Under the pieces are notes generated by a model. The model made no database searches and was not told where the DNA came from. It saw nothing but the letters and a program-made list of their open reading frames with translations. From positions 1 through 64,000 of the forward strand of contig QPGO01000110.1 of NCBI GenBank assembly GCA_008632985.1: a DNA stretch of 64,000 nucleotides, in the 5' to 3' direction. This document shows, in pieces, positions 1 to 48,561 of the stretch. Positions within the stretch are counted from its first letter, which is position 1. The number at the start of each line of letters is the position of its first letter. The stretch is from Psammoneis japonica. Lineage: Eukaryota. The translations under genes and the position numbers were made by a program.

Positions 1-2190
1 AAGTGTTGTCAACTGGGTGGGCAACTGAGGGAGATTGTTCAACAATGATTGAAGCACAAGGGCATTTAGAAGGGTGACAAAGGGCTTGCTGTCATTGTTG
101 CCCTTGGCAGCCTCTCTGGGATCAGCATTGCCAACAGACTGTTTGATGGAGCCAAGAAGGAGATGTGTGACTTGGTCACTGTTGGTCCAAGGAGCTGACA
201 AAAGGATGTTGCTGAGATTGGCTTGACCAGAGGCACACTTGTTGCAATTGTTGGCATGGTGCTTCTTCATGCATTCATTGAAACCTTTGCAGACTTGTGG
301 CCATTGGCTCATGCACAAATGATGGTCTTGGTTTGGGATCACAGATGTTTTCCCTGACAACCCCAACAAGAATGTTGTCTGGCATCCACGCAGTTGCAAA
401 GAGCAGTTTCTGGTGCTGTGCTTGTGAGAGCTGGGTTGCTGGGTGATTGACTGGCGGATTTGGCAGCAGGGTTGCTCAAATGAACCATGGCAGCCAAGCT
501 GTGAGTCTTGCTCAGTTTGCCTTTGCTGAAGATGTGGCTGGCTGCCAACAATGAGGACTTCACAAGAAAGGTGGCTTTGAATGCTTCCTGCTTGAACTGC
601 ATCTGATCAGAGTGGCAAAGTGACAGCGACTGCATGTGGGCAGTGCACCCATTGGACTCCATCTTTTTGTGGATCTGGGTGTTGAGATTGTCAACAAATG
701 ATGTGTGATGTAGATCAGATGGCCACAGGGTGTTCAAATGATTCAGAAAAATGGAGATGACAACATTGCACTTGTTGCAGCATTCCTGGATGGCCGCAGA
801 GCTGACAGCAGTGCCATCAGAGAGAGTGGTTTTCTGATGAACCTGGTTCAAAATCTTGCGAGGGTCATTCACAAAATTTGGAGCATTGCACAAAGTGTGT
901 TTTGCAAGATGGGCTGGAAGCCAGACTGGATGATGAACAAATTGATGCACATGCCTTTGGATTCCACAGACAGCATCACTTTGTTTGGACCCACAAAATT
1001 TTGTTTGGATCAGCGAAATTTTGGGAGCTTGCAGGTCAAATGGCTCTGAGATGGCACCCACATCATTGGCACAGACAACATCTTGGAACTGATGCATTCC
1101 TGCCCTGGGTGGGAGCTTGCAGCACTGACACGCAACACAGTTGTTTTTTGTTGTCAACTGCATGTTTTGCACGCACATTTCTGCATGTTCTCTTCTCCAA
1201 AATTGTTTTCCACACGACTCCCTGTTTTGCGAAGCCCAAAAAATTTTTGTTCAGTGCATTTGTGGGAACAGCAACACCCCAAGTGCACTCTTCAATGTCT
1301 AAAGAATGCACTGGACCAAGCAAAAAATGACTTGCTTCAATCATGGATGAGTTTGTGCACTTGCAAAATTGCCTCTTTTTCTGTCTGTGATCATTGGTGT
1401 GTTCATCACCTGGCAGCAATTTTGCTGCGGGGCTCGCACATGGAATTCTGTGGGCCCAACATCACACAGATTCCCACCTGGGTCTGGAATGCATCCATTT
1501 GACAGCAGGCTGTGTGGTGATGTGTGATGCAGTTGCCATCCACAGTGAAGGCACAAAGATCAACAGGGTTGCTGGCTGTGAGAGTGCAGCTGATGGGCTG
1601 AGTGTGGTGTCATCAAGAGAGTGCAGGTTGACAGCACCTTGTGTGACTTGGAACACGTGATGCCATCAGGATGACAGCCAGCCATGCTGCTGTCCTGGAT
1701 GGGTTGAGGATGCCATGGTCATCCAGACAGTTCGCGGGGTGGTGATGGCTCTGGCGGCATCATGGCAGGACACAACAGCAAGATTCACAGGATCTTTGAG
1801 TGCTTGATGGCTGAAACTTTTCCATTTGGTGATTTTAGCTTTGAGGAGGCTTGTCTGATTTGCAAGAACACCCACGGTGGTGAGACGATTGCCGCAAGAC
1901 AGGCCGGGTGCATTGGCAACGGCGCTCTTGTTGTCGACACATTGAGCGCCGGGCAGTGAGCTCTGCATTGCCCACGTCAGCAGTGACATGAGGGCGCACA
2001 CTCATGGCAACATGATTGTGTGGGTGGGGTGATGTGCTTCTTTGGGGCGAAGGTCTTGGACAAGGGGTTGGCAAGACACTCATCAGTGGGCGATGTTTTG
2101 GCTCGTTTGGTGGGGAAAGGTCTGCCGGCCAGCGGTGATGGTCGAAGGCTTGGCATGATGCTGAGGATGTGTTCGTTTTTGAGAGGTCAA
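1..2190. mobile_element. Decayed repeat, probably a retrotransposon remnant (possible gag-like region on the minus strand); TpA/CpG-depleted block 1
   Basis: Only a handful of TpA in ~2.2 kb. The minus-strand ORF 339..1178 (279 aa) has no Tyr and ends in CWGCQGKH followed by an in-frame TGA and then ...IIC, resembling a zinc knuckle. The element identity is tentative. Confidence 0.45.
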
Positions 2191-2623
2191 AGCTCCACTT
2201 TTAAAAAAGTGGCTTTTAAAAAAGTGGAACGGTGTGAAATGGAAAAGCGAGTGATTCTCAGAATTTTGAGCCTCTCCCGTGTTGAGCTGAAAAAGTGGCG
2301 AGTGAAGGGAAAACCGTTGGCGAATGGCGATTTCCCCCAACGGCCAAACGGTTTTTCCGTTGAACCGAGATGGCTCGCGAAAATCCGAATTTCTGGTTAG
2401 GTGTGGGCTCTCATCCTCTCTACGGTAGTAGAGAGGAGGTGTTGTTGTTGTGTTTGTCCTTGCTTTCAAGATGAACGCTATGGAGTTGCCGAGGTACGTT
2501 CCTTGGATGTTATCTCTGTGGATTACTGCAATGCTCTATTAGATCGAGACCGCTTACCGAAAGGATTCACTTTTCCGATTATTAAACTCAAGTGGCGGAA
2601 AATTTTCTGGTTGGGAACATCCT

Positions 2624-4192: not shown

Positions 4193-4809
4193 GCTGGTAA
4201 CATTGCGTGCGGGGGAACGTCGAGAATCTCAGACTCGGAGCCGACCGCACGCGAGAATAGAATATGGTGTACTGTTGACTCGAGGAGGGAATAGTGTAAG
4301 AAACAAATAATTATCTCAAAGGATCAGGCTCCACACTACTGTAGGCTTTCAAGGCTGCGGATCACTTGCTTCGTCCCGATACAAAACAGTCGAGTCCAAC
4401 ACAGAAAACCATGAGATGAGATCGTAGATAAATGGAGAGTGACAGGTGCATGCCCTGGACACAGACAACAGGTACAACTCTGTGTTCTTTCGTTTTTCAT
4501 TCTTTGCCATTGAAAGTTAAGTCAGAAGTGACAAGCATCTCCACTGACTGACATCACTCCATGTCTTAGAACTGGTTTTCTTGAAGATGGTTTTGCATTC
4601 ACACATGATTAAAAAAATGAGAGCATCTGCTTGATTCTTTCATCGAGCAAGGCATGGAATCGGCGCGTCTCTTCTTCCATTGCTGACACCAGCACAGGTC
4701 CGGGTGCAATCGCATCTGGAGAGTGGCCCAATGCATCATCACTGGGCCCAACATTGTCAACGAATGCCTCTGCATTGTTCTGAGCTCTACACATGATTGA
4801 TTGACTGAT

Positions 4810-5720
4810 TAAATTTGTGCTTGAGCCATCACATTGTGCAGTTTGTCACGGTGGAATCATCTTCTCCTTGACCATCCATGTCAAGCATGGCACCCAGTTG
4901 TCAATGTGCCATTGCTGCACTTTGGGAGGAATCTGGGGTTGGCTTGTCACATCTGAGATTGTGCCATCCAAATGGATGCCAAGCAGCAGCAGGTTGCAAT
5001 GACATCACAACCAGAATCTCTGTTGGATCAACGGCACTGACGGAAAAGAAAATGGACAGCCTCTCTGTGTCGCTGGGAAACAATGAGAATGAATTCCCTG
5101 TTGACACAATCCACTGGAATCATGATGAGTGCACCCTTGAAAGTGCCAGCAGGGATGGGTCATTGAGACTCTGGGATGCAATGGTTGTTGGTCCATGCAC
5201 ACACAGTTGAGCAGCCAAGGTGTTGCCAACGGGTCGTGTTGTGGGGCTTCAACAAGAATGCCCATGCTGGCATCCACCCTGGCTCATGGGAAAGATGTCA
5301 GACATCAAACAGAGCATTGCAGTCTTGGCAGTTTGCCATCTTTGCTTCCTGATGGGTCCATGGATTTGCACAATGGACAGACCGGCATGACTGAGAGCTG
5401 TTGCCAGCCACGTGCTGCGCCAGCCATGCCAGTCCAAGCATCAGCGGCATTGCTTGGCACCCAGAAGTGATGACAGACTGCTCAGATGTGAGATGTCCAG
5501 TTTGGTCAGTGCACTTGACTTGCCAAAGGGCTTGGCATTGTTGCTGCCATTTTGATCTGGTTTGTGGGGTGGGGTGCACAGGGCTGGAAGAGCTCGGACA
5601 GCAAGGAAACCCTTTGTTTCATTTTGACGAGTCTCATCGCCCAACAACTCTCACACTTTGGGATGCCACCTGAGAAGATTTGGATGTGACCAGGATCACT
5701 TCGTCACCTGACTCTGCCTC
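4810..5720 (+). pseudogene. Degenerate WD40-repeat gene in TpA-depleted block 2
   Basis: Fragments IHWNHDECTLESASRDGSLRLWD, ISGIAWHPE and TLTLWD lie in different frames. No TpA seen between ~4812 and ~5725. Confidence 0.65.
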
Positions 5721-6051
5721 TGGAGTAGAGCGAGAGAGCCTCCGACTTCTGTCGTGGGGCCCTGCTGGCACAGTGCTCTTCAGACCTCCCGTCGACTCGA
5801 CTGCACGAGCTGGCATCCGGCAAAGGACAAAGGGAGCGACACATCCATCACACTGACAGGCAGAATGGATAGACGGTGGATAGAAGGACATTACGTAGAA
5901 ATGCACGTAGGTTGATACCACTCTATCCGCACCGCGCATCGTCATCACACGCAACAAACAACAACAACGCGGCGTCTCGGCATTGGCGTCGCTGCCGCTA
6001 CAACTAACCAAGGAGTGTTTGACAACTTCGCTACTCTACTGCAATCACATC

Positions 6052-17830: not shown

Positions 17831-18662
17831 GCCGTCGCCCGTCGCCCGTCGCGATGGGGAGGCTCTTCGACAGGTGATGCAGCAATAGACAACAGACAAG
17901 TGTTGCTCCGAAGATCAGTGAGCCCTTAGAAAACCCTGATTGAGTGCATTCATTTGATGTCAACATGCGAAGCATGATGTCAGAGGAGCCCGAGTGACGA
18001 GGCACTTGCAGCAGAAGAAATCATGTGCGCGCACAACCTTTCAATGGAACGGCCTTGTCCCGGCATTGCACATGAGAATGAATTAGAAGTTTGATGCTCA
18101 TTGCCACAGGGGAGCACAAACAGCACCAGGTGCCATGATGTGATGCTGCCACACAGCTCCGGTTTGTTCAAGCTGGGTGTTTCTCAGCACTGTGCGGCAC
18201 AAAACAACCTCCGAGCAAACATCTGGTGCTTGGGATGTCAGGAGGCCATGCATTTTCCTTGGTTTCAAGTGCTCTAGTTTTTTTGCTGCATCATTTCTCC
18301 AGGCGATGTCCTCTGTGCTCCACGCCCGTTGCCGACATTCCACGCCTCTCTTCCAACTCCTTCTGCAGCCCAGACCATGCTGCATGCCACACGTTGCTTC
18401 AGATGACTTCTGCCACACAGCAAGGCTCCAAATGCTGCTTCTCTGTAAAAAGATTCAACTCCTTGTCCCACCCAGTGCTGCACCCCAGGCCTCGCATGCC
18501 TCAACGGTGGGTTTGCACCGTGTGACTCCGTGATGCGTTGTTGTCACTGCAGCTGGGGAGCAAGTTGTCCTTCATGGAAAGAACACATTCTAGTCAAAAG
18601 GGCAAAGAATTAGAATGAGGGTGACACAAGTTGGATGCAACTCAGTTCCAAGGCCTGCAAAC

Positions 18663-19053
18663 GACGCGTTCCAGGTCTAGGTGGGACCTCGCACTACTGA
18701 ACTGTGACATCGACAGTTTTTTGAGTCTCGTCGTATGTCGCGCACGTAGATTTCTACGTGATTTTTTCGATATTTTGTGTCATTTTACGGTACACTTATT
18801 GAGCGATCCGTCCAACAACTTTTGACATTTTTTGTTACAGCGCGATTCTTTGATGTCTTAAGAATCGCGCAGGGCAGGCGAAGTTGCAAAAACGTCGAGT
18901 GGGTAAGAGGCATAATTGTACCACAAACTTGGCCGTTTATTTGATGTTGAAGATAAATGTGTCCATTAATTAAATTCTCGTACTACGGAGCTCGCACGTA
19001 GAATTCTACGGGCCCAATGTCACATGGAGTCCCACCTGGGGCTGGAACGCGTC
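18663..19053 (+). mobile_element. MITE copy 1 (391 bp)
   Basis: ~25-bp imperfect TIRs GACGCGTTCCAG....AGGTGGGAC; 4-bp TSD AAAC on both sides; near-identical inverted copy at 19759-20150. Confidence 0.92.
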
Positions 19054-19758
19054 AAACATCTCATGTCCCTGCTTGCCCAGTGTTCAATCTCAGAGTGTCA
19101 TCACCCGCAAGCGTTGCTTGTTGCTGGTTTCGATTGCAGCACCAGCACCGCAAAAATCCGTGCGTGCATGAGTTTTTTGGCGAGCATTCCGTAAAGTCTT
19201 GACTTGTGTCTTGATGTCATGACTGAAGCAGTGTGTGTTGTCACGAGAAGACCTTCTTCCTTTTCAGTGGTCAGCTTGTGTTTGTCAAGCATTGCCCGTC
19301 AACGGGCTCTTTCACATCTGAGATTTTTCTGGAGGGCTGCTGAGACTGCGGCACGTGGACACGGGATGGCTTCTCTGCAGTTTTGCCAGTGACAGTCATT
19401 CAGTTTTGAGTGACCTTGCAATGTCATCTGCGTGCCTTGACATCACAATTGATCCTAGAGAATCAACTCATGTCTGCTGACAATTGAGAGACAGTCACCT
19501 GTTGGAATGAACTGGGTCGTGACACTGATGAACTCAGTTTGGCAAGAGCTCTGCTTGACCAAGGGAGACAAAAACTTGTCTCTCCACACAAAACCCACTC
19601 CAAGGTGCAGGAAAGTGCAACGTGCCATGCCTCCGGCTCGTCAAATCTTCTGATGACACACCGGCACACAAATGATGTACGACCACAAACAGGACTTGCT
19701 TGGACATGCAAGCTGCACAACGGGTTCCGGTGATGTCCCCTCACATGCATTGGCTGTG

Positions 19759-20150
19759 GACGCGTTCCAGCCCTAGGTGGGACTCCTTGTGACATTGGGC
19801 CCGTAGAATTCTACGTGCGAGCTCCGTAGTACGAGAATTTAATTTTAATGGACATGTTTATCTTCAACATCAAATAAACGGCCAAGTTTGTGGTACAATT
19901 ATGCCTCTTACCACTCGACGTTTTTGCAACTTCGCCTGCCCTACGCGATTCTTAAGACATTGTAGAATCGCGCTGTAACAAAAAATGTCAAAAGTTGTTG
20001 GACGGATCGCTCAATAAGTGTACCGTAAAATGACACAAAATATCGAAAAAATCACGTAGAAATCTACGTGCGCGACATACGACGAGACTCAAAAAACTGT
20101 CGATGTCACAGTTCAGTAGTGCGAGGTCCCACCTAGACCTGGAACGCGTC
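19759..20150 (-). mobile_element. MITE copy 2 (392 bp), inverted relative to copy 1
   Basis: Same TIRs; 4-bp TSD TGTG on both sides; absent from the homologous site in the repeat copy at ~62480. Confidence 0.92.
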
Positions 20151-20569
20151 TGTGCTTTTGAAGCTTCTTCCAACTCTGTGCTCTGTGTCTGACATCATTT
20201 CTCATCACTGGGCTTGGTTCGACGGCCAAAAATGGCACTCTGTCAATGTTGCCAAGACTGATGACTGGGAAAATGGTTTGGCACTTTTGTCCTGCAGTGG
20301 CCACAAAACCGCTGACAGCTGACCATTTTCTTCTGGTCAACAAGCACGCACCAATGGCATTCTCTCTCATCAGCTAAAAGGGCCAACTGAGAGGTGCTTT
20401 GTTCTCTTCATGGATGGGATCCCTGCGCCTTTCATCGAGACCCTGCAGCATGTCCTGCCTTTGCACAACAAGCACATGACGAATTTCAACAGAAGCAACA
20501 ACGCTCCAACTGTTGCCAACCCAAAAGACACTTTGGCTCATGGTTGCTTGACCTGTTGGACACTGCCCC

Positions 20570-21090
20570 ATTGAAATCAATGCGTTGGACGAACAATCTG
20601 CCTCAGTTCTCAAGGAGCGGGTGCTGCGTTGTGTGGAGTTTGTCGCCCTCAATGTGATCAAGAACTCAAACGCAACAAATTGTTTGGCTCTTGATGAAAT
20701 CGATGGAGCCAATGCCCGCGGGGCTGATGCGTCACTGGTGGAACTTTTCATCAAGGCAGAAATGTCCAGCTGCAGGGACAGCAACAACTCCCACAAGAAG
20801 AAACAGAATCCTTGCCCTCGTCATTCCATTGTCGTCATTCGCAGCCACAAGTTTGCGCCAGCACTCAGACCACTCTTGTCACATGCCGTGCAGTTTGATG
20901 TGCCGTCTAGCATGCGTCTCGTTGCAAGACTCCAAGCTGTGTTGAGCAAAGAGCATTTGAACTTGACAGGCACTCTGCATCATCAATTGGTCACAGGGAC
21001 AGGAGATGACATCCATTCTTGTCTGCACACCTTGCATTTGGCGGCAGCATGGGCCCGAGAATTGGTGAGACTGTCAGACAAGGATCAAAC
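20570..21090 (+). pseudogene. CTF18: CTF18 (RFC-like clamp loader) fragment within repeat copy A
   Basis: NCLALDEIDGA (Walker B), HKFAPALRPLL and GDDIHSCLHTL resemble CTF18 motifs. Confidence 0.72.
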
Positions 21091-21529
21091 TCATGTCAAT
21101 TTTATTCACCATTTGGAGTGGCAGACCATCAAGAGTCTCACCATGGTGTGGCATTAAACAGGGTGGACTGGTGCTGTGCTTGGAATGCATGCAAACACAC
21201 CCCGTTGCGTGATGCTTTCAATGATCAACCCGAGGGTGCGATTTCAGATTTTCGCTGTCACTCCATGGAAGCAAAGGCTCATCTGCAGGGAAAAGACATC
21301 AACTCACACTTGTGCTGCAAAACAGGAGACGAGGATTGGACACACTCAGAATTTGTCCCGCTCGCACCAACGTTGGCCGCAACGGGAGAATGATCTCAAG
21401 ATGTTCTGATGCCACTGTGTGAAATGGCTCAATGCAAGCCATGGAAGAAAATCATGTGGTGCACCAACTTGCAGTGCATCTTGTTGGAAGTGAAAGCAAT
21501 CGACGGATCAGGCACAATTGCAGATGCTC

Positions 21530-21900
21530 TGGTGGTGAGTGGGAGGGCAACAAGGCCTCATTTTGCACCCTGGAAAGTCCTTTTTTTGTCACCAAAATCT
21601 GAGGCTTGCCAACTCCGCCACCAGCCGAGAAGCAAAAATCAAGTCTGATTACATTGCGCATAAAAAAATCAAGGGAGCGCTTGGCATCAAGACAATCATT
21701 GGAAACAGACTCAAGAAGATGATGGCCGGAACCCAGCCAATGAGATGAGCTGTCGTCAGTCGCTGTGGAGGCCATGCTTGATTCTCAGAGCATTGGAGAA
21801 GACGGCAAAGAGGAACGCATCAAGGCAGAGGCAATGTCCAATTTGACTGCACTCAAAGACAAGTTGAGTGCAGACAAAAAGGGCGCAATGGTCCCAGCCT
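21530..21900 (+). pseudogene. eIF5B: eIF5B fragment within repeat copy A
   Basis: IKSDYIAHKKIKGALGIK..GNRLKKMMAGT and IKAEAMSNLTALKDKLSADKKGAMVPAS resemble eIF5B domain II/III. Confidence 0.7.
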
Positions 21901-23734
21901 CTGTTGTCTCGACAGTGCACTTTTGTTTCAGATTCATGTCTGGTGCACCTTTTGTTGTGGACAATGCTCAATTGGTGACGTGGGGACCCGATGTGTCCAT
22001 GAGATCGACACTCAATGACACGACAAATCACAAACATTTTCAGTGTCCAAAATGCTGGTTTAATTCAGTGGGCCCCAGTGCAAGTGCTTGAGATGTTGTC
22101 CCAATGCCGCACCACAGCACCTCTGCTGCTTCGTGACTGCGGCTCTGTTTCGACAGGTCAACCTTAAAGAAACGACCCAAGGGGAGACGAAGGTGGAGTG
22201 GCAAGAATCAATGATCCCCGATGCCAAAGCCTTCAAGGCATGTCAGAGCAGGCATGAAGGTGGGATTTCATGTCTGCACTCAAGTGCAACAACCATTTGC
22301 GCCAAGGTTGCAGAAGCAGTTTTCTCTGTCATCTTTTGCTCCTGGTTCAGGCCATCCAACAAGCAAGTTAGTTGTGGCTTCGTCAATGTCATGAATGTTC
22401 TTCCTCTTCTCGTTCATGGCTTCTTGAGATTTCATGTCTTGTTCGTCTCATGAGTTGACGTGCTGGAGCTTCACTTGGAGCTTGGAGAGTGGTGCTTGCA
22501 GGTTTTGAACCTTGGGTTGCAATTGAAGTGCTCCTGCAGTGCTTGAGGGCAAAAACAAACTCGGCAACACCGCCGCCAGTGCAGTTGGAATCGGAACGGG
22601 GCGCACGCATGAGGTGACAAAAATCTCCATTGTGAACAAAAAAGGCTGTCCCAAGCACACCAGCTTTGCCGACTTAGACCACAATCCTTGCATTTGAGGT
22701 GACGATGAAGCACAAGGACCAAGAACATGCTGCGACCGCCATTGCAATCCACAGACATCGTGCAGAATGAGTGACACGCAAGTGTGGATTGCCATCTTGT
22801 GCTTTTGGTCTTTCTGCATGTGATGGAAAAGTTTCAAAGCGTGCTTCAAACATTTGAAACATGCCGGTGTCAAAAGTTGACAGAAATTGGTCGCGTGGGA
22901 TGACATTGCCTCAAGAGAGCCATCAAAAGATGGAGCTCAAGCTTTTGTGCATCTTCAGAGTGAAAAATGTCACCCAAAAAAATGCAAAAGGGCGGGCGCG
23001 CTGCGGAGACAACAAGAAAACTTGCGAGTCAACCGCGCACCAAATCAACACTCCCTGCGAGTGAAGACTCACCGTGCCACATCACTGATGTGATGGAACC
23101 CCATGCCCCGCATTCCGTCAATGGCATGATCTGCTTGGCGAGGTTTTGCTGCTTCGCAGACGAACGCTGCTGTCTGTTTCAATGGCCGTGACCTGACGGG
23201 TCAAGCAAGCAGGCAAATTCCTGCGGTCAAAGACACAGGAGTGACATGGACTCCAGGCCGGAGACACACACACTCGATTTGCCCCGACCTCCGGACTCAA
23301 CTGGCAACACCTGCGCCACCTGGAGACAAAACGCCATCAAGCTGAATGAGTTGTGGAGTGCCAAACGAGAGCGAGTGCTCAATCCAGAGGAAGGGCGAAC
23401 ATTCGTGGGGACTTGGCACTTTCCAAATTATTGCTAATTCCTACGTAGACCTTACGGTTGCCGCACAAAACGCCAAAAAAAAACTGCCGCCGATGACGTC
23501 TTCGCCGCTGTCGAGGTCCGAGCATGTGACGACAACAGCGGCAAGGATTTGGTCTGTGAGTCTGTCAGGATGTACAAGCTCCGGTGCAAATCTACGCACG
23601 AGCCTGTTGCCATGCGTGGTACGAACACCGTTAAAATTTGCACTGCGTTTTATGGCAGTCTGCGCAGGGCTTCTGATGGGACGAACTTGTCATTTGTGAA
23701 TGACCATGCACAGATGTCATAGATGCCTCGAAGA

Positions 23735-25133: not shown

Positions 25134-25159
25134 AGTAGCCTCAATATCCGGGATCCTCT

Positions 25160-31903: not shown

Positions 31904-33423
31904 ATGATGGAAAACATTAATGACCCGAGTACGAGACGTCGAGGTAGATCAAGAACGGCTCGTCCTGTTACCACACAACAAGTGTACAGAGACATTGCGG
32001 ATTTGCAAGCCACCTTGTACCAAATGAGGAACGAACGCCGTGCTCGTCAGGCACAGAGTGGCTTGAGATTTTCTCCGAGATCTCCAGCAAACGGTCGAGG
32101 AAGAGGTATGGTGTCGTTTTTGCTTTTCATGGTTGTCTTGACTTTTTGATTGAAACATGACGTCACACCGCTGGCATCAGTCTTGCGTGACCTAATTTTG
32201 CTCACATTCTTGCGTGTGTTTGGGTTTTTCGCCATGATGCGTGGTTGTAGCTCGCCATCTTTCTCCAGTGATTCGTTGGGAGACGCGAGGACAAATGGGG
32301 AGATCAATGTTGCAGTCACCCATTCGGCAAACGTCGTCGCCGGACGCAAGAGAAGAAGAGAGTGGTTCGAGAGAAGGAACGCCGCATGAGCTACATCCAG
32401 ACCGCGATTATCGATGCAGTGTATCGAGGGGTCGCAACTTGATAAAGGCCGTTCATCATAGTGCGTCACGTGGTAGATCCATGCTAAAGGAAAAACCAGA
32501 GTCGGTAGGAAAACAAAGCATGATGGAAAAGAAGGAGAAGATTCAGAGCAAAGCTACCGGCGGAAAGCGCGAACGCAAGAGTGGAGTATCACCTGGTATG
32601 ACTCTGGCGGAACGAACCAAAGTGCGTCTACAAGAGAAAGAACGGAATCTGCAACGCATCAAGAATGAAATGATGGAAGAATGCACGTTTTCACCGGAAA
32701 CAAACCACTCGTCGTCAACGGCAACGAGTGTGCGGAGCCAGGGATCTTCACAACGGAAAACCACCGGGAAACAACCAAAGCTTGTTACTCCTCAAAGCAG
32801 CAAGACAAATGATTCATCTTCTCCTCCTACTGTGGTTGATGCTGAAAATCGAACATCACCGGAAAGTCTAGGGAAAAGCAGCGTTAGCACTACCATGAGC
32901 AGCCGTATTCAAGAGCTGTACCTAGACGGGGTCAGGAGGAATCGTGCTTTTACAGATAAGGTCTGTGAAGAACCATTGAAAGGTCATTATGAATATTTTT
33001 CTCTTTGGCTAACTTGCTTTTGTCCATTGACAGACGGAAGAGGAAATGAGAAAACGCCGCTTGGAAGAAAAGGAGCTTGAGATGTTTTGTACTTTTAAAC
33101 CCAACATGAATTGGCGCAAAAAGACGCAACCCGCTGAAAAGCGAGAGCCTAGTACTATTGAATATAATCACCGACTTGCTCCAAAGGATACCGGGTCAGA
33201 TGTTTCCATGGGAACCTTGACGTTGTGCAGCCTCAATGATATGCCCCCAGTCGAGGTTTTTGCGAAAAAGCCCGACATTGGGTACGAGACTCCGCCTCAA
33301 GTCACCATTATTGTCAGCGACAAGAGTATCGAGGAGTGCTTGCACAAGGCACCAGTGAACAAAAGACTTGCTCCTGAATTTGACGCCGCTCGCTCTGTGG
33401 ATACCGAATATGCATCTGTCTAA
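31904..33423 (+). CDS. Hypothetical basic/low-complexity protein with CTFxP motifs, probably 3 exons
   Basis: Consecutive ORFs joined at GT-AG sites; ECTFSP and FCTFKP motifs follow charged helices. Confidence 0.6.
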
Positions 33424-33879
33424 CCTCTACCAGGTAGTGTTTTGGTGGCTTTTTGCTGGTTAAGAACACCAACACCACTTTAACGTATAGTATTTGACTT
33501 TTGATCCATAGTTTGTTGATAAGAACCCCTACGTCTCTAAGAATATAATGTAAAAAGCGAGATCCAACAACAGCAATGGAACTCGCTCTATCGCACTCTG
33601 TTGCAGAAGATCTGGGTAAACGCACGACGGAACGACCGCGGCGGTGTTGTGGAAGCGGGCAGGATGGATCTGTGTGCGATTCTCAAACAGACGATGAGAC
33701 CCCGAAAATCCTTGTTCTTCTCTCAGTCTACATTGGCATTGGCTTTCATGGGGGGAGTCTCTTGAAGCGCTGCAGTGCCCCTCCCTCACCCGAAAAATTG
33801 AGAAAGACACTGGAGACCATCACGCCGTTTTCTCTTCATTTTCTCACCTCCGATCTGCCTTGGAGGCTCGGAAACTGGA

Positions 33880-34420
33880 AGCTCACAATGAGGTCAAGGT
33901 GAGGTTTTGTTGATCACTGCCTGTTTGACTCATTGTTTCAGGCTGGATTGTTTTCTGGTTGTCTTGCACACCCCCCACTCTTGTGCCCTGCTCCATCCCT
34001 GAAATTTCAAGGCCAGCCCGATTGTTGGGCTCTTGTGGGCTTTTGTTCTTTGGGCATGGTCGCCATTGCTGCCAGCCATGGCATGCTGGTGGCATCATCA
34101 CAAGATTGCCAAACACATGGCATGCACAGCTCAGAGCTGCCCACACAGTGCACGGCTGAAATGGCCAAGCTGGAAGGCTCCTTGCGCTGGCTTTCATCTG
34201 GCACTTTGGTGGAAGAGTTCAAGAGCGCTGACAAGGAGGAAGAGTTGAGTGTTGAAGGACAGGAAGATTGCCAAGGAGGCACTCTGGGAACTCATGAGTG
34301 AGTCTGATTTCAGTGCAGTGCAGGCAAGCATCAGTGCCAACAAGAGTGGCGCCGCTGACTTTCTTGGTTCTTGCAACTTTGTGGGCCAGCACAATGAAGT
34401 GCTCAATGCCATGAAAAGTG
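33880..34420 (+). pseudogene. Degenerate EF-hand-containing gene fragment in TpA-depleted block 4
   Basis: MSESDF..ISANKSGAADF resembles an EF-hand; DNA homology to 40880-41360. Confidence 0.5.
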
Positions 34421-35348
34421 CTGCAAACTTGTGCTGGCAAAACATTTTTTCAACATGAATCTTGCCAGCAGAAAAGCCTTGTTTTAACTGCAGCATTGCA
34501 CTGTGTGGCGCTGAATGTTGCTCTGTGAGAGCGACATCTGGGGGCGTGTGTTTCTTGCCGGTGTTTTCCCAGTGTGCTCTGCAGCACTGTCACTGCAGCT
34601 GGGGGGGGGGGGGGCAGCTGCTCTCTTGGCTTCACCCAAGAGACACAACTGCTCAGTGCGTTTGTGCTGCTGGCCAAATTGCCCTCCTTTGTGCCCATGT
34701 TGACACACCAACCTCATCCGCCTCTTGGCTGGACTGCTGGGTGATCTGACAAGGTGTTGTGCCACCTGCACCTGCAAGCAACCAGAACCCATCATGCACA
34801 ACTTTGCTCCTCATGACATCATGTGATGCTCTCACCAGTGGAGATTTTGCCTCCTCCTCCATGCCCTGTGCAAGTGTGTGTGGCAGCGCTGTGTGGGCAG
34901 CAGCGCTGGAGGACAAGGCCCTGCCTTTCCAGCTTGGGTTGTGCGAATGTGAGGCTTGTTTGCACACTCCAGTGAAGAAGACATTCCAGTCCATCATTAG
35001 AAGGCTTGGATTTCCTCTCCCAGTTAACCAGAGAGCCGCAGGAGAAAGGAGCAAGAACGAGATGGCGGAAGGGGAGGTCAGGCACAAGGTGACCCGGATT
35101 TTATGCCACGTGTGCGTCGACACGTCAGACACGGGAATGAATTTTATGCGGATGACGCGCGCCGATCACGATCTGCCAACCCGCGAAAAGGCAAATATCG
35201 ACATCATTTTGGTTCATTTTTTCTATTTTTTGTGATCGATTACCTCTACTGATAAAGACAAGTTGATCAGAAGAAGAGATCTGAAGTACAACACAAGCCT
35301 GCCCTTTTCTCGCACTTCTCTCTATCGTTGGCAGCCAGATCAAGAACT

Positions 35349-37997
35349 ATGACGATGACGACTGTAAGGAAGGTTCTTTTGATGTGTTGGTGGTGTTCAT
35401 GGTCGCTTTCGATCAGCCTCGGACAATCACTACCGGACTGCGAAAACAATGCAACATTGCAAACAACCTTTGGTGGCTTTTTAGCGAACAGTATCATGTT
35501 TGATGTGTCCACCACCATGACGGATGGTGGAAACGGCGATACTTCCCCATTGTGGATCACCAGTCTGGAGGCGTCCATTCGAGCGGTGTTCCTCCAAAGC
35601 GGTCCTTATACAGTCAATGTAATGACGAAAGAAGGAACTCATGTGGGGTTTGAGAATGACATTTCGGCGTGGACACTGCTCCATTCCGAACGCGATGTAA
35701 CCAGCTCGGACCTTCTCTGTGCCATTTGTACCGACAACCGACTCGAGAGTTTGCTCCGGTTGGACTTTGACGTTCCTGTGGCCCTGACAAATACCCGAGC
35801 CTTCTATCTCAGCGTCTCCGGTGCCGACAGCGACGATAAAATGGTTGTATTTGGAGATGGTCGTGCCACGCCGGAACCGGGCGCGGTGGTCGTCCAAGAC
35901 GACTACCTCGTGATTCAAGAAGGAACACCCTTGCCATCGTATTTTGGATTGTCCGTTGAAAAAGACAACGCCACTACTACGCTGCCACCTATCGCCAATG
36001 GAGGTTTCTTCAGTGGCAAGATTAATTATTTCACCCCATGTGACATGGCGCCACCACCGATGGAAACATTGTCTTGTCCCACGAATCAGGAGGCCACCAC
36101 AGTCACACTACCCACGGCTGATACTGTTCAATCTCGCACGCATGGTGTCATGTGGGACTTGACGGCTGCGGGAGATCAAGACATTCTTGTCTCTGAATTG
36201 CAGATTCCCATTGATGCAAAAGCCGCTACCTTCGACTTTGATATTTTGCAACTCTGGACCAAGGAGGGGAGTTTGGTCGGCTTTGAATCCGACCCCAATG
36301 CCTGGACCATAGTTGTGGCACAAAGTGTCGATTATCCAAGCTCTACGTTATCATTCAGCAGTTTCTGGTCTCTCCCAGTGGGACCTTTTTTGATACCTGC
36401 TGGTGAAACGCGTGCCTTTTACGTCACTACCTTTGGTGACGAAGAGGAGAATTTCAACTTTTTGATTTCGGGTGTTGGTAGACAGGACGAAGCTATCAAC
36501 GTCGATCTTGGCCCCCTGACGGCCTTTGATGCCAATGTGGAAATCAACAATGCAATGGGATTAGGCTCTTTCTTTCTTAGGGGTACAGACTCTAATAAAG
36601 TTCTGGGGTTCTGGAACGGTATTGTCGTGTATGATGTGTGCACACCCTCCTCATCGAATAGCCTGCCACCGGAAACGACGTGTCCTGAGACCTACAATAC
36701 GAAAGAGCAAATCGTATCCTTGGGTCTCGAAGAGGCGACGCGGATCATTAAATTTGATGCGGTATTTGCCATTGATGTGTACGTGGAGACCCTTTTTTTA
36801 GCACTCCGGGAAAATATCTACAGTGGTGATTTCGTGGTCTCGGTATGGACCACAAACGGACTATTGGATCAAGTAGACGCTGACGTGTCGACATGGGACA
36901 TTGTGTACCGGTCCAGCATCACTATCGAGGACAGTTTCTTCATATCGCTCCCCGAAGATCGCTTTCGCCGTATATCAGTCCAAGCGGGACAGCCGCTTTC
37001 TTTTGCGGTCGGATTTCTCCTCCTCGATGATGAGACCCCGCTGTATGCCGGTGGAGGGATTCGACCGGGAGAATGGGCGGTTCGCACACCGGATCTCCTC
37101 GTCCGTGAATCGGGATCCGTCTTTAGTGGGGCAGTGCGGTACAGCTCCTGCAATCGTCCGCGAAGATTTATGCCACAGTGTGGCGATGACTCGGTCATCC
37201 AGGCAGTGACCACCGTACCGCCTTCTTTCAATCCGCAAAACCTGCTCGTTGCCAGCGGTCCGCAGGGGGGTGTCATGTTTGATATACAAGCATCCGAATC
37301 GATCGAAGTGAGTTCCATCGATACCAGGTTGACCGATCCAACCAATTTTGGCAGCGCATCGGGAGTTGTATCGGTGTGGACCAAGACCGGGTCCTACGTT
37401 GGTTTCGAAGATGAACAGTCGGCATGGGAGTTGCTCTTCCGACACGAAGTCCGCTTTTCAAATTATGAGGATTTGTACGAAGATCTCCCGCGCGGTTTGA
37501 ATGCTATAATTCCGGTCGATGTTTTCCGTCCCAAGGTAATTCCGGCCGGTTCGACACAAGCATTCTATGTTACAATGCACGCCGACACGGTCGGGGCAAA
37601 TGTTATCGCTCTTCCAGTGAATGGGCCTCCGGGTACTTTGATTGGAGATGACGGGACGGTACAAATCTATTCTGGGCTCGCCCTTTCCGAGCAGTTTGGA
37701 GGGACTTTGTCGGGGAGGAACGGGTTTTTTGGATACATCAACTATCGGCGCTGCCCTGCCATGAGTAGTCAACAAGCCTTTGAGGCTGCCAGCAATCCAG
37801 ACCGTTTTGGCCCGACGTTGCTTGATTCATCTCCGCTTGATCCTGACTTAACGAGTCCTGAAGGCAGCGAAAGCCAAGGTAATAATGGTGAGGGGTCTGG
37901 AGGACAACCCCAATTTTCGTCTGCCTCTGTGGTCGAGTCCCGTCTTCAGGTTCCTGTGGCCCTCTTATTGGCGTTCTCATTTCTCGTTTGGCCATGA
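35349..37997 (+). CDS. Secreted/GPI-anchored-like protein with ~4 tandem internal domains
   Basis: Signal peptide; repeated G(V/I)M(F/W)D ... WTKxGSxVGFExDxxAW ... RAFY units; hydrophobic C-terminal tail. Confidence 0.8.
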   Translation: MTMTTVRKVLLMCWWCSWSLSISLGQSLPDCENNATLQTTFGGFLANSIMFDVSTTMTDGGNGDTSPLWITSLEASIRAVFLQSGPYTVNVMTKEGTHVGFENDISAWTLLHSERDVTSSDLLCAICTDNRLESLLRLDFDVPVALTNTRAFYLSVSGADSDDKMVVFGDGRATPEPGAVVVQDDYLVIQEGTPLPSYFGLSVEKDNATTTLPPIANGGFFSGKINYFTPCDMAPPPMETLSCPTNQEATTVTLPTADTVQSRTHGVMWDLTAAGDQDILVSELQIPIDAKAATFDFDILQLWTKEGSLVGFESDPNAWTIVVAQSVDYPSSTLSFSSFWSLPVGPFLIPAGETRAFYVTTFGDEEENFNFLISGVGRQDEAINVDLGPLTAFDANVEINNAMGLGSFFLRGTDSNKVLGFWNGIVVYDVCTPSSSNSLPPETTCPETYNTKEQIVSLGLEEATRIIKFDAVFAIDVYVETLFLALRENIYSGDFVVSVWTTNGLLDQVDADVSTWDIVYRSSITIEDSFFISLPEDRFRRISVQAGQPLSFAVGFLLLDDETPLYAGGGIRPGEWAVRTPDLLVRESGSVFSGAVRYSSCNRPRRFMPQCGDDSVIQAVTTVPPSFNPQNLLVASGPQGGVMFDIQASESIEVSSIDTRLTDPTNFGSASGVVSVWTKTGSYVGFEDEQSAWELLFRHEVRFSNYEDLYEDLPRGLNAIIPVDVFRPKVIPAGSTQAFYVTMHADTVGANVIALPVNGPPGTLIGDDGTVQIYSGLALSEQFGGTLSGRNGFFGYINYRRCPAMSSQQAFEAASNPDRFGPTLLDSSPLDPDLTSPEGSESQGNNGEGSGGQPQFSSASVVESRLQVPVALLLAFSFLVWP

Positions 37998-38485
37998 CGG
38001 CGGTATAAATTCACGCAGCGCCCCTCCCACTTTTGTGTACCGCACCGGCATCTCAAATCCTTTCCCGGCTAAACGACTTATTTAGACTGATTGACACCTT
38101 ACGAGTCTCTTCCATTAGCTTTTTGCCAGTTTGCAACTGCCGTATCCCACGCTCTCATCAGCATCGCAAAACTGCCATTCTATTCTACTCTCTAGAGTAG
38201 AGATACGTGCCTGGGCTTGCCGAGCATTTTATCACTGGTGTCATGCCCCAGAGCTCGTCGTATTTATTTGAGCTCGTGCTTTCGGTGCGACGAGCTCTTT
38301 TTACTATCGCCGCAGAAAAGCATCGTGTGGTACTGAGTACTGAACGCCGCCTGTGTGTATCGTTTGGCCATCATGGAGCGCTGAGCAACATCATTTTACG
38401 CAGCTATCTTTATTAGTATAATAGAAAGAGGAGGAAAGTGTTGGAGAAGAGTTCTGTCTCCTTAGAAGCATCGAAAACGAGAAAG

Positions 38486-39550
38486 ATGTCCGAGCAGGAG
38501 CATTCTATTTCGTCCAGTAGCACCAGCAGTGCTCTGTCGCTGCTGGAACTTTCTGACGAGTTGCTGAGGGCTATCTTACTTTATCTTGACGGAGTGTCGC
38601 TTGTTCAGACTGAAATCACGTGTGGCAGGCTGAATGGTATCGGACGAGAGAGTTGGGCTGTCCTAGACGAATCTATTGATACGTCTGACGAGCTCAAGTG
38701 GAATCATTCTAACAACAACAACGCTCGATATCGATGTATCCGCTACCTCAAGACAGTCAAGTTTGCTGATCGTATCGACAGGTTGATCTCGCTGCACTTT
38801 GGAGCATTCGTTGGCGAGCATGGGGGCACTTACGAAGATCATCATTGCGATGGCTGTGATTTTCCAAATCGCTTGCACTTAGATTGGATACAGCGACCGG
38901 ACGACTTTGACTACTTTGTTCGTATTTCTTTCGCTCCACGGGCTCTTCCAGCCCACAGAACCTTGCTATTTCAAGGATTCTTTTCTCATGTCTCCTTGAA
39001 TTCATACAGAAGACGGGTCAACGCACCCACGAGGCAGCTCACTATCAACCTACGCGACAGGGATAGCACCGACCTTGCCTACCTGGTACCGGCTCTCCTG
39101 CACAGCGGGAGCGTGGTTTACCCCCGTATCATTTTTCCAATTGCGAGATGTGGAGTTGTGACAACAGTCGTTGCTGTTCGGAAAAACGATTTGCAGCTGG
39201 CTCTCATGTTTGCGAGCAACAGGGTGCAGCGTACTAGTGGTCATCCATTTGGAAGTTCTAGGAGTAGTGGGGTTTTGATTGAAATGGTCCACATTTTCTC
39301 TGAGAATGCGCACCGCACTGATGACGCAGGAAATTTTATACCCACAATGAATTATACTGCTACCGATGGGGCAGGAAATCCCTATCCTACCTATACGTTT
39401 GCGGAGCTAAAACATTCGCCACGAACGGTGGATTGCCAGTGGCAGATGAGAGTCGTTTGTGGAACGTACGACCAGTCCCTGTATTCTCCTCCTGAAGAGG
39501 AGGGTACCGGCAATTGGCTTTCTCGTCGCAATGCAGGCCTCCCACCATAG
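38486..39550 (+). CDS. F-box protein
   Basis: N-terminal LLELSDELLRAILLYLDGVSLVQTEITCGRL matches the F-box pattern. Confidence 0.75.
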   Translation: MSEQEHSISSSSTSSALSLLELSDELLRAILLYLDGVSLVQTEITCGRLNGIGRESWAVLDESIDTSDELKWNHSNNNNARYRCIRYLKTVKFADRIDRLISLHFGAFVGEHGGTYEDHHCDGCDFPNRLHLDWIQRPDDFDYFVRISFAPRALPAHRTLLFQGFFSHVSLNSYRRRVNAPTRQLTINLRDRDSTDLAYLVPALLHSGSVVYPRIIFPIARCGVVTTVVAVRKNDLQLALMFASNRVQRTSGHPFGSSRSSGVLIEMVHIFSENAHRTDDAGNFIPTMNYTATDGAGNPYPTYTFAELKHSPRTVDCQWQMRVVCGTYDQSLYSPPEEEGTGNWLSRRNAGLPP

Positions 39551-39709
39551 ATTCCGATTCGGCATCTTTGCGGAACCCCGATATGATGCCGTTGGGGTCA
39601 ATTCAGCCGAGCAAAACAAGCCATGAAATTGACCATCTGCTGGTTCTTGCAAGTAGCTGTGTTTTTTGAATACCTTTATCTTGTACTTAGTTTCGCTTTG
39701 GCCTGTGCC

Positions 39710-41970
39710 TAGGTTTGCTGGAAGGAAAGAGAGAGCGCGGGAAACAATGGTCTGAGTCTTTTGGAGCGGTCGTTGAATCCAGTGCCGAATTGCAACTTAC
39801 AAATAAAGGAAGAATTGATTCAAACTGCTTGATGGCTAACAATGGAAGTGAGTCAGCTTGGAAATATGAAGCGATCATCAAGACGTTTAAAGTGGGTTAC
39901 AACAGAATCGGCAACAAACCAAACTTGAAAAAAATCATACCAGGACAAATGCACAGATGAGTGTGGTGGAAATTGTCAATGACTGCACCAGAGGAGCAAA
40001 GAGCAGTGGCAGAGAGAGAGAGAGAGTTTGCTGAGAATTGTGGCTGCCAGCTCTGGCTAAAGTGGAGCATGGGAAGAACTGGGCAAGTTTTGGGGGTGGC
40101 AGACAAATGTCAAGCCACTGACTTCAACCCCCAAGCAGGCTCAGACTCCAAGACCTTCGGTGACCCAAGAATCAAACCTCCTCAAGTGATGGAGGAAACA
40201 GGCCACATGACATCCACAGAGCCTTGTGCAACAAGGCATTTGTTGGCTTGAGGTGCCACTCCAGTGGGCACAAGAAGAGCTGCTCGTGACATCCTCAGTT
40301 TGCCTCTCTGCCTCATTGTGTGCCAGACAAACCACAAACCCTCACAACATTTTGTTGCCAACAGACTGTGGTTGTGCAGGTGCCATGTCTTCACCCCACA
40401 GTGGATGAAGACTTTGGCAACCAGCCTGTTCTAGATGGCTGGCAAACATTGTTGGCAACAGCAAGTGCAGCATCAATGGCTGCACTTTGGGAGCAGGGCT
40501 GCTCAGTGCAGCAACCTGGTGTGATGATGCACAGATGAAATTGCTTTGTCAACTGGCACCAGGTCTTGGTGTGATGAGACACTGGGGTTGGCTGCAATTT
40601 TTGCTGCATCTTTTGATGAAATGACATGCTGCCAGTTAAAAAAGTCAAACCACACAAGCTTGGTGTTCTTCTTTCCATTGCGCTCATGTTTCTAAGAAAT
40701 TTGCCCAGTTGTTGGGCTCTTGGTCCCAGCACCACAACTTGTGCCTCTCTCACCAGCACTCAGCATTGAACAAGCACACCATCAACACTCTGCAAGAGAA
40801 TGTGTCTCAGTGTGTCTTTTTGGTTGTTGTGCTTGATCCTCCCAGTGGCATGCTCTGATGGACCCTGTCAGGAGGAGCCAAGTGCAGAGATCAATGTGTG
40901 CTTTGTTGGCTGCCATGGATTTGACTTGTCATTTCATGTTTTCTTGGTTGTTTTGCATGACTTTCACTTGCTCCACTCTTTTGCCAAAATGTCAAGGCCA
41001 GCCCTGTTGCTGGATTTGCCCCATTTTGTGGGCCCAGCTGTTGTCACCACACACCACAGCATGCAAGTGGCATCATTGTCAGATTGCCAAACACAACAAA
41101 TGCAGAGTTTTGAGCTGTTTGCACAGCACATTGCTGAAACAGTCAAGAGCTGGAAGGCTTCTTGTGTTGGCTTCTTGTGTCGTCATCGACAAGAAGATCA
41201 AAAAACATGGCAAGATTGGCAGGGGGCAATGCAGAAAGTTGTTGCATGTGTGGAAAGGCTGGCAAAATGAGTGAATCTGACTTTGTTGAATTGTGGGAAA
41301 TTTTTGACATTGACGAAAATGGCAAGGTCAACTTTTTCAAGTTGTCGTGCCATGGGGGGAAGAGCACAATGAAAAATTTGGAGCCAGCAAGGGCAGCAAG
41401 TCTGCATGTCAGCAGCATGGCTGAGATGGCTGCCCTTCACATTTCTGTTCACTCCTCAACAATGGCGACAATGGTGCCTTTGGAAGAGGATGACAAAGAT
41501 CCCATGAAAAAAAAAGAGCAAAGATCCAGAGAAAAAGAGCCACAAAGACTGGGCAAGTCCCTGGGGCTGCTCGAGGGGTGCGGCAGAGAGAGGCACCTGA
41601 AAAGGAGTTGCAACTGACAACAACAATGATCCCATGGAAGAGGAGAGTGAAGGTGAGCCAGCCGCTGATGTTTGCTGGGGAGAGAGGGCTGGGGGGGCGC
41701 CAGCTTCCTTCTCTGTTGGTGGAGTGTGGCCATTGGATCCACGGCTGAATTGCAGCTGATGGTTGCATAGGAAAAATTGACTCAAACTGCTTGATGGCTG
41801 ACAATGAAAGTGGAGCAACTTTTGCATGTGACAAAACACCCACACTTGGTTCCAGAGGGTTCGCATCAACAACCAACTTGGAGCCTCTGTCATCCCAGGA
41901 CAAGTGGTGCGCGGAGTGTGGTGGAAGTTGTTGTCAACTGCTGTGCTTTGCTGGAGGGGCAAAGAGCTAA
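39710..41970 (+). repeat. Diverged ~300-bp direct repeats (39710-40010 and 41670-41970) bracketing TpA-depleted block 5
   Basis: Shared segments include AATTGAYTCAAACTGCTTGATGGCTRACAATG, CCAGGACAA and GAGTGTGGTGGAA. Confidence 0.75.
40880..41360 (+). pseudogene. Degenerate EF-hand-containing gene fragment, paralogous to 33880-34420
   Basis: MSESDFVELWEIFDIDENGKVNF; shares TCAAGGCCAGCCC, AGATTGCCAAACACA and GCTGGAAGGCT with the other copy. Confidence 0.6.
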
Positions 41971-42281
41971 CTATGGCAACTCCCCGCAACTGTGGTTCCT
42001 CTGGCAGGGCCCTGTCTGTGCAGTGATGGCTCCATCTAACCATCTAAATCAAGTGCTGCAGAAAAATGTCGAGCCACGTCATGCTTTTGTGTGACGTAAT
42101 GCCATCTGTTCCTCGTTCGCGCCACTTTTTCCGGCGCACAACGCACAATGCGTGTGCTGGTCCCGTGTAGTTCTGCGGCGAGTTCTTCCTTTTCATCACT
42201 TCGTCCTGTCTTTCTACATACGATCGGCTCGTCGGCATTGTACCTTTTGATCCGCCTTCATCTCGAAAATATAGTAGCAAC

Positions 42282-47405: not shown

Positions 47406-47424
47406 AGCCAGTTTCCTTCGTAAC

Positions 47425-48561
<1,137 letters not shown>

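Follow-up and report, generated by a model that had tools for sequence, protein, structure and literature searches.

Domain-restricted A:T to G:C hypermutation at TpA, alongside CpG decay, in a 64-kb window of the diatom Psammoneis japonica

We describe a mutational footprint in 64,000 nucleotides (nt) of DNA from Psammoneis japonica (assembly GCA_008632985.1, contig QPGO01000110.1, positions 1 to 64,000 of the forward strand), referred to below as the window. Five blocks of the window have lost nearly all of their TpA dinucleotides to a real, domain-restricted hypermutation from A:T to G:C at TpA, which goes alongside a decay of CpG. The changes run in one direction and in one sequence context, consist of transitions only, fall on both strands alike and on each site independently of its neighbours, appear to have been made in place, and stop at sharp edges.

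Extent and composition of the blocks

The blocks emerge from a sliding count of TpA and from a list of TpA-free runs. A preliminary description of the window had placed them at 1-2190, 4490-5720, 17890-23420, 33735-34995 and 39945-42090, and between those limits we count 4, 5, 66, 1 and 9 TpA, corresponding to observed/expected ratios (O/E) of 0.03, 0.06, 0.19, 0.01 and 0.07 respectively, with the majority of the 66 lying inside two inserted miniature inverted-repeat transposable elements (MITEs). Near-absence of TpA is thus found almost exactly where it had been reported, and two spot counts, no TpA in 4812-5725 (54 expected) and a single one in 33735-34995, are also correct; the limits themselves needed little change, except that the last block stops about 120 nt short of 42090. 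Refined by the positions of individual TpA, the blocks are:

1..2201, block 1, cut off by the start of the window; 4 TpA
4611..5725, block 2, containing a TpA-free run of 916 nt
17928..23428, block 3, unbroken except for two MITE insertions; a CTF18-like pseudogene copy from 19257 on
33730..34997, block 4, 1 TpA; 33890-34411 is a copy of a repeat common to block 5
39945..41967, block 5, containing a TpA-free run of 1075 nt; 40887-41386 is a copy of the repeat common to block 4

For the pooled statistics the two MITEs were left out, which gives 11,026 nt of block DNA, and the other 52,974 nt of the window served as background. The pooled blocks hold 26 TpA where about 440 are expected for 11,026 of the 64,000 nt, an O/E of 0.04 compared with 0.59 in the background and 0.50 for the window as a whole. 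CpG is also depleted (0.35 versus 0.99), while CpA and TpG are raised to 1.78 and 1.73 from a background level of 1.15, and GpC is slightly up (1.22 versus 1.00). The remaining eleven dinucleotides stay within 0.16 of their background values, and the G+C content is unchanged at 50% in the blocks and 48% outside. Taken singly, the blocks range from 0.15 to 0.64 in CpG O/E and from 1.5 to 2.1 in TpG/CpA O/E. These values bear out the earlier picture of TG/CA-rich and CpG-poor blocks between flanks of normal TpA content.

Blocks and background separate completely. Intervals of 500 nt that lie fully inside the blocks (n = 29) have a TpA O/E of at most 0.10 with a median of 0.03, those fully outside (n = 200) have at least 0.24 with a median of 0.57, and the two sets of values do not overlap, so that within the window the TpA level of the blocks lies outside the general distribution. 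The longest TpA-free run in 100 first-order Markov simulations of the window is 353 nt, whereas the real window has 13 runs of at least 350 nt, with a maximum of 1075 nt. The depletion is far beyond chance.

On the + strand, TG outnumbers CA in block 1 (292 versus 220, counted over 1-2200), block 4 (157 versus 122) and block 5 (242 versus 211), and the two are balanced in blocks 2 and 3. The surplus may be inherited from the ancestral sequence, or the process itself may favour one strand.

Substitutions between two copies of a pseudogene

From 19257 on, block 3 is an inverted copy, at about 80% identity, of a sequence with normal TpA near the other end of the window. The two relevant features are:

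58716..62976, - strand, un-erased paralogue of block 3: CTF18-like pseudogene with frameshifts; TpA and CpG normal
20364..21070, + strand, CTF18-like reading-frame remnant in the erased copy: AAA+ domain and lid like those of replication factor C (RFC), with an in-frame stop

An exhaustive search of proteins with one reading frame of the normal-TpA copy returns 237 relatives (E down to 4e-29), proteins of 500-1000 amino acids (aa) with an AAA+ domain and an RFC1-like lid; two of them carry the source name 'chromosome transmission fidelity protein 18'. Both copies are broken, the erased one by its in-frame stop and the other by at least two frameshifts that are needed to read the same region, and the genome must have its functional CTF18 gene at another site. 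The un-erased copy also carries an internal tandem duplication at 60619-60973 with 96% identity.

We took the un-erased paralogue as the reference for the substitution spectrum, over 3431 well-aligned columns. Because outgroup CTF18 proteins match both broken copies about equally (tblastn 152-159 bits versus 123+40), the polarity of the comparison is argued from composition and not from an outgroup: the normal copy has TpA, CpA and TpG at the levels of the rest of the window, and it is the erased copy that stands apart.

The 121 TpA of the normal copy appear in the erased copy as 51 CA, 47 TG, 6 TA and 5 CG. In total 98 of the 121 have become CpA or TpG, which supports the proposal, made in the preliminary description, of a regional A:T to G:C mutagenesis at TpA that goes beyond deamination of 5-methylcytosine (5mC) or repeat-induced point mutation (RIP). 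In the reverse direction, only 2 of the 12 TpA of the erased copy stand opposite CA or TG in the normal one. The 195 CpG of the normal copy are found as 53 CA, 46 TG and 78 CG; these 99 conversions to TG or CA, together with the CpG deficit and the TpG/CpA excess of the blocks, agree with the attribution of the CpG loss to 5mC deamination. All other dinucleotides are 55-82% conserved between the copies, and overlap with TA and CG accounts for the lower values. The transition rates per site, folded to the pyrimidine, are:

T to C at TpA: 108/246 (0.44)
T to C at TpG: 50/502 (0.10)
T to C at TpT: 40/526 (0.076)
T to C at TpC: 26/469 (0.055)
C to T at CpG: 100/389 (0.26)
C to T in other contexts: 0.064-0.067

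A TpA can be hit only once, because after the hit it is no longer a TpA, and since one hit abolishes the site the T to C rate at TpA has a ceiling of 0.5. The effect of context on T to C is 4- to 8-fold per site even with this saturation, so the excess, at 0.44 in TpA versus 0.055-0.10 elsewhere, lacks the independence of context that GC-biased gene conversion would give it. Transversions run at 0.032-0.060 over all contexts, and TpA lies within that range (12/246, or 0.049); the excess at TpA is therefore made up of transitions only, as deamination predicts. Second hits are rare, with TA changed to CG in only 5 of 121 cases. In terms of survival, 5% of TpA and 40% of CpG remain, corresponding to approximately 3.0 and 0.9 hits per site, which makes the TpA process about three times faster than the decay of CpG. 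We estimate that it exceeds the background by at least 20-fold.

The outcome is balanced between the strands (47 TG versus 51 CA), and the order of the two outcomes along the block is random: runs tests give P = 0.87 for the 98 TA events, P = 0.30 for the 99 CG events and P = 0.77 for all 197 together. Each site is hit independently and on either strand at random, and this random order speaks against a processive single-strand enzyme that worked in a small number of episodes, as it does against editing of a single RNA strand. There is a weaker dependence on the flanking bases. YTAR makes up 19 of the 26 surviving TpA, compared with 16.4% of the TpA in the background (binomial p = 2e-10), from which conversion in YTAR would be about three-fold slower. 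Where a site is asymmetric, the hit fell in 30 of 50 cases on the strand with a pyrimidine after TA, a figure that is no more than suggestive.

A second comparison comes from the repeat common to blocks 4 and 5, an unclassified sequence of about 500 nt. Its two copies show TG opposite CA, or vice versa, at 8 of 39 TG/CA steps (20.5%, a small sample from 210 aligned columns). About 40% of the pyrimidine-purine steps in background DNA are TA or CG, and a share of about 20% such flips, half of that figure, is the value expected if each copy had resolved its ancestral TA and CG alone. Each copy thus appears to have been erased separately, in place, after the repeat had been copied.

Flips of this kind also occur between erased block 3 and its paralogue, as tandem double changes at 31 of 506 TG/CA steps. 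In clean alignment context, erased DNA has 18 TG<>CA flips versus 8 single-step intermediates, compared with 2 flips versus 15 intermediates in pairs of un-erased repeats. A two-step path through a short-lived TA or CG, calibrated on the intermediates, is roughly estimated to account for about 6 of the 31. Read on one strand, a CA to TG flip is a C to T and an A to G change at adjacent bases, which would fit deamination chemistry. On the + strand of block 3 the flips run 22 times from TG to CA and 9 times from CA to TG.

Targeting, chemistry and rival explanations

The edges of the blocks and the DNA that was spared bear on how the process is targeted. Three further features are needed here:

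23409..23493, + strand, homology to the paralogue past the edge of block 3; 5 TpA kept (from 23429) and CpG kept
18663..19053, - strand, MITE-like insertion A, young; TpA and CpG intact
19759..20150, + strand, MITE-like insertion B, young, splitting the CTF18-like homology; TpA and CpG intact

On the right side of block 3 the converted TpA run to about 23417 and the first kept one is at 23429, with homology to the paralogue extending to 23493. The edge is therefore sharp, within 10-20 nt, and lies inside the duplicated segment; one more TpA is converted within the homologous stretch beyond it. The edge falls at a 200-nt indel between the copies. Around block 5, direct repeats of about 200 nt (39773-39976 and 41733-41931) are offset from the edges of the block by about 170 nt and 36 nt. 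The TpA process is also separable from the decay of CpG and extends further at some edges, by a few hundred bases: at the end of block 3 (23050-23450) TpA is converted at 10 of 10 sites while 18 of 22 CpG are kept, and at the right edge of block 1 the loss of CpG weakens from about 1750 while that of TpA likewise runs on, to 2201.

Sequence with normal TpA includes the equally dead paralogue at 58716-62976 and families of tandem repeats at 46.7-47.5 kb, 51.9 kb, 60.6 kb and 10.2 kb, whose units are 73-99% identical. In the first of these, four tandem units of about 200 nt (46750-47453, 71-93% identical) in an A+T-richer spacer remain un-erased at a TpA O/E of 0.83-0.99. Spared as well are the two MITE copies inside block 3, which are about 392 nt long with 25-nt terminal inverted repeats and are 97% identical. 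Each contains about 25 TpA, and only 2 of the approximately 8 positions at which they differ are TA versus TG/CA. Taken together, the edges, the spared sequences and the spatial coincidence with CpG loss lead us to infer that the process is targeted by a local state of the DNA, for example methylated or silent chromatin, and not by homology. The two MITE copies lie in opposite orientation about 700 nt apart, and two of their differences are TG<>CA tandem flips, one of which yields the palindrome ACATGT.

The label 'reverse RIP' that had been attached to the blocks, with its implication of induction by repeats, is not supported in view of the spared paralogue, the four tandem-repeat families, the MITE copies and the edge within a duplicated segment; duplication is neither sufficient for TpA erasure nor does it set its limits. 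The analysis lends no support to the name of a defence system either. The likeness to RIP in Neurospora and other fungi is nevertheless real in several respects, i.e., a regional hypermutation of dead or duplicated DNA by transitions only, in a dinucleotide context, on both strands and with a strong skew. RIP, however, mutates the C:G pair, makes TpA from CpA and TpG and raises A+T, whereas here the A:T pair is mutated, TpA is destroyed, CpA and TpG rise and G+C is unchanged; and RIP is triggered by duplication, whereas here a paralogue and repeats are spared and the edges are independent of homology. Neither a gain of TpA, nor enrichment in A+T, nor targeting set by duplication is found. The RIP indices are accordingly reversed, with TpA/ApT at 0.043 in erased DNA versus 0.65 in the background and (CpA+TpG)/(ApC+GpT) at 1.96 versus 1.19, where the thresholds for RIP are about 0.89 for the former and about 1.03 or less for the latter.

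One might still imagine a homology-triggered burst similar to RIP, for example around sexual reproduction, in which an enzyme of new specificity acted in one or a few episodes. Duplicated sequence is present in blocks 3, 4 and 5, and the intact young MITEs in block 3 suggest a process that is not continuous. Diatoms, moreover, have DNMT4 enzymes related to the fungal RID protein, with a function described as not known (PMC9998398), although these could be relevant to the CpG part only. We regard such a burst as improbable, given that the paralogue of block 3 and the tandem repeats and MITE copies are untouched, that the edge of block 3 lies within a duplicated segment and the direct repeats around block 5 do not line up with its ends, that the hits form no strand-coordinated runs, that no relative of block 1, block 2 or the left part of block 3 turned up within the 64-kb window, and that the RIP indices point the other way.

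The blocks are islands of dead DNA between apparently intact genes, consisting of a CTF18-like pseudogene, an unclassified repeat in two copies, the remnant of an old MITE and possibly that of a WD40 sequence. Their DNA has been heritably mutated so that nearly every 5'-TA-3' became TG or CA, and in parallel about half or more of the CpG have become TG or CA, the usual footprint of 5mC. As to chemistry, an enzyme with a preference for adenine between a 5' T and a 3' pyrimidine would work on either strand of a marked domain; hydrolytic deamination at the TpA step would leave hypoxanthine, which reads as G. We tentatively favour this hydrolytic deamination of adenine at 5'-TA over oxidation of thymine, although with rather less than even confidence. 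Three observations point this way: the excess is purely transitional, the flips can be read as adjacent deaminations on one strand, and the flank preference on the adenine (5' T far above C, which is above A, which is above G, and a 3' pyrimidine) is one that we take to resemble that of TadA-type enzymes. Two variants cannot be ranked from sequence, namely a symmetric N6-methyladenine at TA followed by deamination, and excision of the A followed by insertion of C opposite the gap.

Several points weigh against this interpretation. The sequence of a palindromic site cannot separate A to G from T to C on the opposite strand, and the evidence comes from one window of one organism, read as sequence alone. 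We know of no natural enzyme that deaminates adenine in chromosomal DNA, although no search was aimed at one. The DNA run that agrees with the assembly (X1, see below) may be its source data and hence no independent confirmation. The surplus of TG<>CA flips over the two-step estimate is only partly explained. Finally, the MITE copies kept their TpA where the historical rate would predict roughly ten conversions per copy, so the process does not act at its historical average rate on all DNA of a domain. It may have died out or come in episodes, it may depend on a mark missing from the MITEs, or else the insertions may be very recent.

The alternative chemistry starts from the other base of the pair. 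A dioxygenase of the TET/JBP type would turn the T at TpA of silenced DNA into 5-hydroxymethyluracil (5hmU) or 5-formyluracil (5fU), whose mispairing with G would give T to C. This would mean a second epigenetic mark that decays as 5mC does, with the footprint and the domain targeting unchanged, and the fact that TA and CG are both palindromic 5-methylpyrimidine-purine steps could account for their coincident losses. On the other hand, 5hmU itself pairs normally with A. There is precedent for the mark in dinoflagellates, another lineage of the stramenopile-alveolate-Rhizaria (SAR) group: according to PMC11572971, a TET/JBP enzyme makes 5hmU there, and the modified base is concentrated on repeats, coincides with 5mC and keeps transposons silent; earlier studies cited in that text find it preferentially in place of T in TA and TC. 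In this it is like the footprint described here, being a second mark besides 5mC on the repeats of an SAR lineage with a cited preference for TA, but what that text describes is a mark, whereas we describe mutations. For the mispairing step, PMC7051996 reports that ionised 5-formyluracil pairs with G and that 5-formyldeoxyuridine (fdU) in Escherichia coli causes mainly A:T to G:C changes (62-66% of mutations at 0.1 mM). However, T to C at TpC is the coldest context in our comparison (26/469, 0.055), so that the secondary preference of the dinoflagellates for TC is absent, and TpA shows no excess of transversions, although oxidised thymine also mispairs in other ways (references within PMC7051996). 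We consider the oxidation of thymine unlikely, without discarding it.

An artefact of sequencing or assembly, in which modified bases are misread and TpA is present in the cell, is very improbable. Its one support is that the only DNA run with the sequence may also be the source of the assembly. Contigs built from the k-mers of this run (X1), at a word depth of about 57, span 33001-43000 and with it blocks 4 and 5; they reproduce these 10 kb with 4 substitutions and 2 indels. Misreading of a strand would give either all TG or all CA, whereas the two are mixed within a few bases, and the erased copy of the pseudogene shows ordinary substitutions, indels and two transposon insertions relative to its paralogue, as expected from old and real sequence. 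A basecalling artefact on modified DNA, a possibility raised together with the original proposal, is thereby largely excluded, with the proviso that X1 is perhaps not independent.

Equally improbable are forces with no specificity for TpA, i.e., GC-biased gene conversion, relaxed selection, or RNA edited by an ADAR-like enzyme and copied back into the genome. The change from A:T to G:C is indeed the direction that biased gene conversion favours, and enzymes that edit A to I prefer a 5' U. But the specificity for context is strong while G+C has barely moved (50% versus 48%), an equally unconstrained paralogue keeps its TpA, both strands are hit equally and without runs, and the repeat copies were erased once in place. 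Specifically, GC-biased gene conversion is ruled out by the effect of context and the unchanged G+C, and ADAR-type hyperediting through a retro-copy would need one-strand clusters of A to G, in place of which we find 47 TG and 51 CA in random order (P = 0.87). Polymerase eta, as in somatic hypermutation, has its hotspot at WA (TA and AA) and produces transitions mixed with transversions; A to G at ApA (T to C at TpT) reaches 0.076 compared with 0.44 at TpA, and the 12/246 transversions at TpA are no excess. Ultraviolet photoproducts are ruled out by the absence of a dipyrimidine signal, and a foreign origin by the fact that block 3 is a copy of resident sequence.

Among known systems, the decay of methylated CpG in vertebrates and in methylated diatom repeats agrees fully with the CpG part of the blocks (99/195 converted, O/E 0.35), and it resembles the TpA process in that single palindromic sites are hit independently on either strand. 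It cannot remove TpA, however, whose loss is faster (5% versus 40% survival) and outreaches that of CpG at some edges. ADAR hyperediting and the TadA/ADAT enzymes with the editors derived from them share the reading of A as G, the preference for a 5' U or T and the restriction to transitions, and TadA also prefers a 3' pyrimidine. These deaminases act on RNA (or, when engineered, on single-stranded DNA), in clusters on one strand and with products that are not inherited, whereas here chromosomal DNA is changed on both strands and site by site. In E. coli, biased very-short-patch repair replaces a T that precedes A by C in one particular context, and CTAG is depleted as a result. There too a TA-containing word is lost by T to C before A, but that effect is genome-wide, bacterial and confined to CTAG, whereas ours is regional and YTAR words such as CTAG survive best.

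It is possible, although we would not yet count on it, that silent chromatin in diatoms, or in this lineage at least, is subject to a second heritable chemistry besides CpG methylation. An enzyme system would recognise the palindromic TpA in marked domains and convert A:T to G:C, either by direct deamination of adenine in chromosomal DNA or by a symmetric modification of TpA that decays as 5mC does. If true, TpA would be a second 'epigenetic dinucleotide' with the erased blocks as its fossil record, and captured genes and transposons would be disabled for good with the G+C content unaltered.

Full-text searches of the literature outside subscription journals yielded no report of TpA erasure, in diatoms or elsewhere. 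We also examined 67 loci (478 kb) on eukaryotic metagenome contigs with relatives of CTF18, and found no block that joins loss of TpA to loss of CpG; the longest TpA-free run there is 361 nt, in sequence of 63% G+C with normal CpG, but this negative is weak because such contigs rarely contain repeats. On the basis of one window and of openly available literature, we take the footprint to represent a regional mutational process of a new kind. Were it to hold genome-wide, it would combine a specificity for TpA with an A:T to G:C direction that we found reported for no genome-defence or silencing system, and it would imply either a natural enzyme acting on adenine or thymine of chromosomal DNA or a hitherto unknown base mark at TpA in the heterochromatin of one of the major groups of marine algae. 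An activity that naturally and cleanly turned A:T into G:C in a specific context on double-stranded chromatin would be of interest to DNA repair, epigenetics and base editing alike. Since the blocks have normal G+C and reversed RIP indices, scans based on either will miss them, and the heavy load of transitions masks ancestry in similarity searches, so that three of the five blocks escaped identification here. The joint deficit of TpA and CpG with an excess of TG/CA provides a test that needs only sequence, and algal genomes could be scanned with it to establish the age of the process and the candidate genes that go with it.

Contents of the blocks and neighbouring genes

Every block had been described as decayed repeat or duplicated-gene sequence. 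This is borne out in part: block 3 has its pseudogene copy, blocks 4 and 5 their shared repeat, and block 1 the end of an old MITE, but block 2 has only a sub-threshold WD40 match and no relative in the window. The element in block 1 is:

1423..1497, + strand, old fragment of a MITE end

Compared with the young copies over about 70 nt, this fragment shows TA to TG and CG to TG/CA changes and two TG to CA flips. The WD40-like remnant of block 2 (4872-5207) is weak, with E = 3.3e-4 and a score under the Pfam cut-off, and a Pfam search with 46 stop-to-stop frames, taken from the blocks and from the paralogue, gave two sub-threshold matches only. A 303-aa frame in block 1 has no homologue at E <= 0.01 among 291 candidates. 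A transition-tolerant alignment within the window found no relative for block 1 (the MITE end excepted), for block 2 or for the left part of block 3, and Rfam gave no match in the window.

At the right end of block 4 (34671-35004) the depth of the X1 contigs doubles and there are several short contigs with loose ends and a replaced stretch of 78 nt; a repeated or polymorphic element lies at this edge. Of the four substitutions between the window and the X1 contigs, one is a TG<>CA flip in block 5 (41475-41476) and another a C to T change at a CpG in block 4.

The DNA between the blocks carries long, apparently intact open reading frames (ORFs), among them a FAD-binding protein, a glycosyltransferase, large surface-type proteins, a TLDc protein, an ABC transporter and a NUDIX protein. 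The best relatives of the TLDc protein are metagenome proteins with 56-58% identity, and a protein of the diatom Discostella has 46%; a record of the diatom Thalassiothrix is among the relatives of a second gene. These matches indicate a diatom-like alga as the source. A further run, X2, yields contigs that lie on genes, with none on blocks 4 and 5, an absence that carries no weight as to whether the blocks are silent. In the gene to the right of block 5 one X2 contig skips 111 nt with GT..AG ends (42739/42851), i.e., an intron, so that X2, despite its label 'DNA?', is probably an RNA library. The 300-aa product of the ORF at 49375-50277 (+ strand) matches the Pfam families ADP-ribosyltransferase exoenzyme (E = 8e-13) and NAD:arginine ADP-ribosyltransferase (E = 1e-10), which is unusual for an alga.

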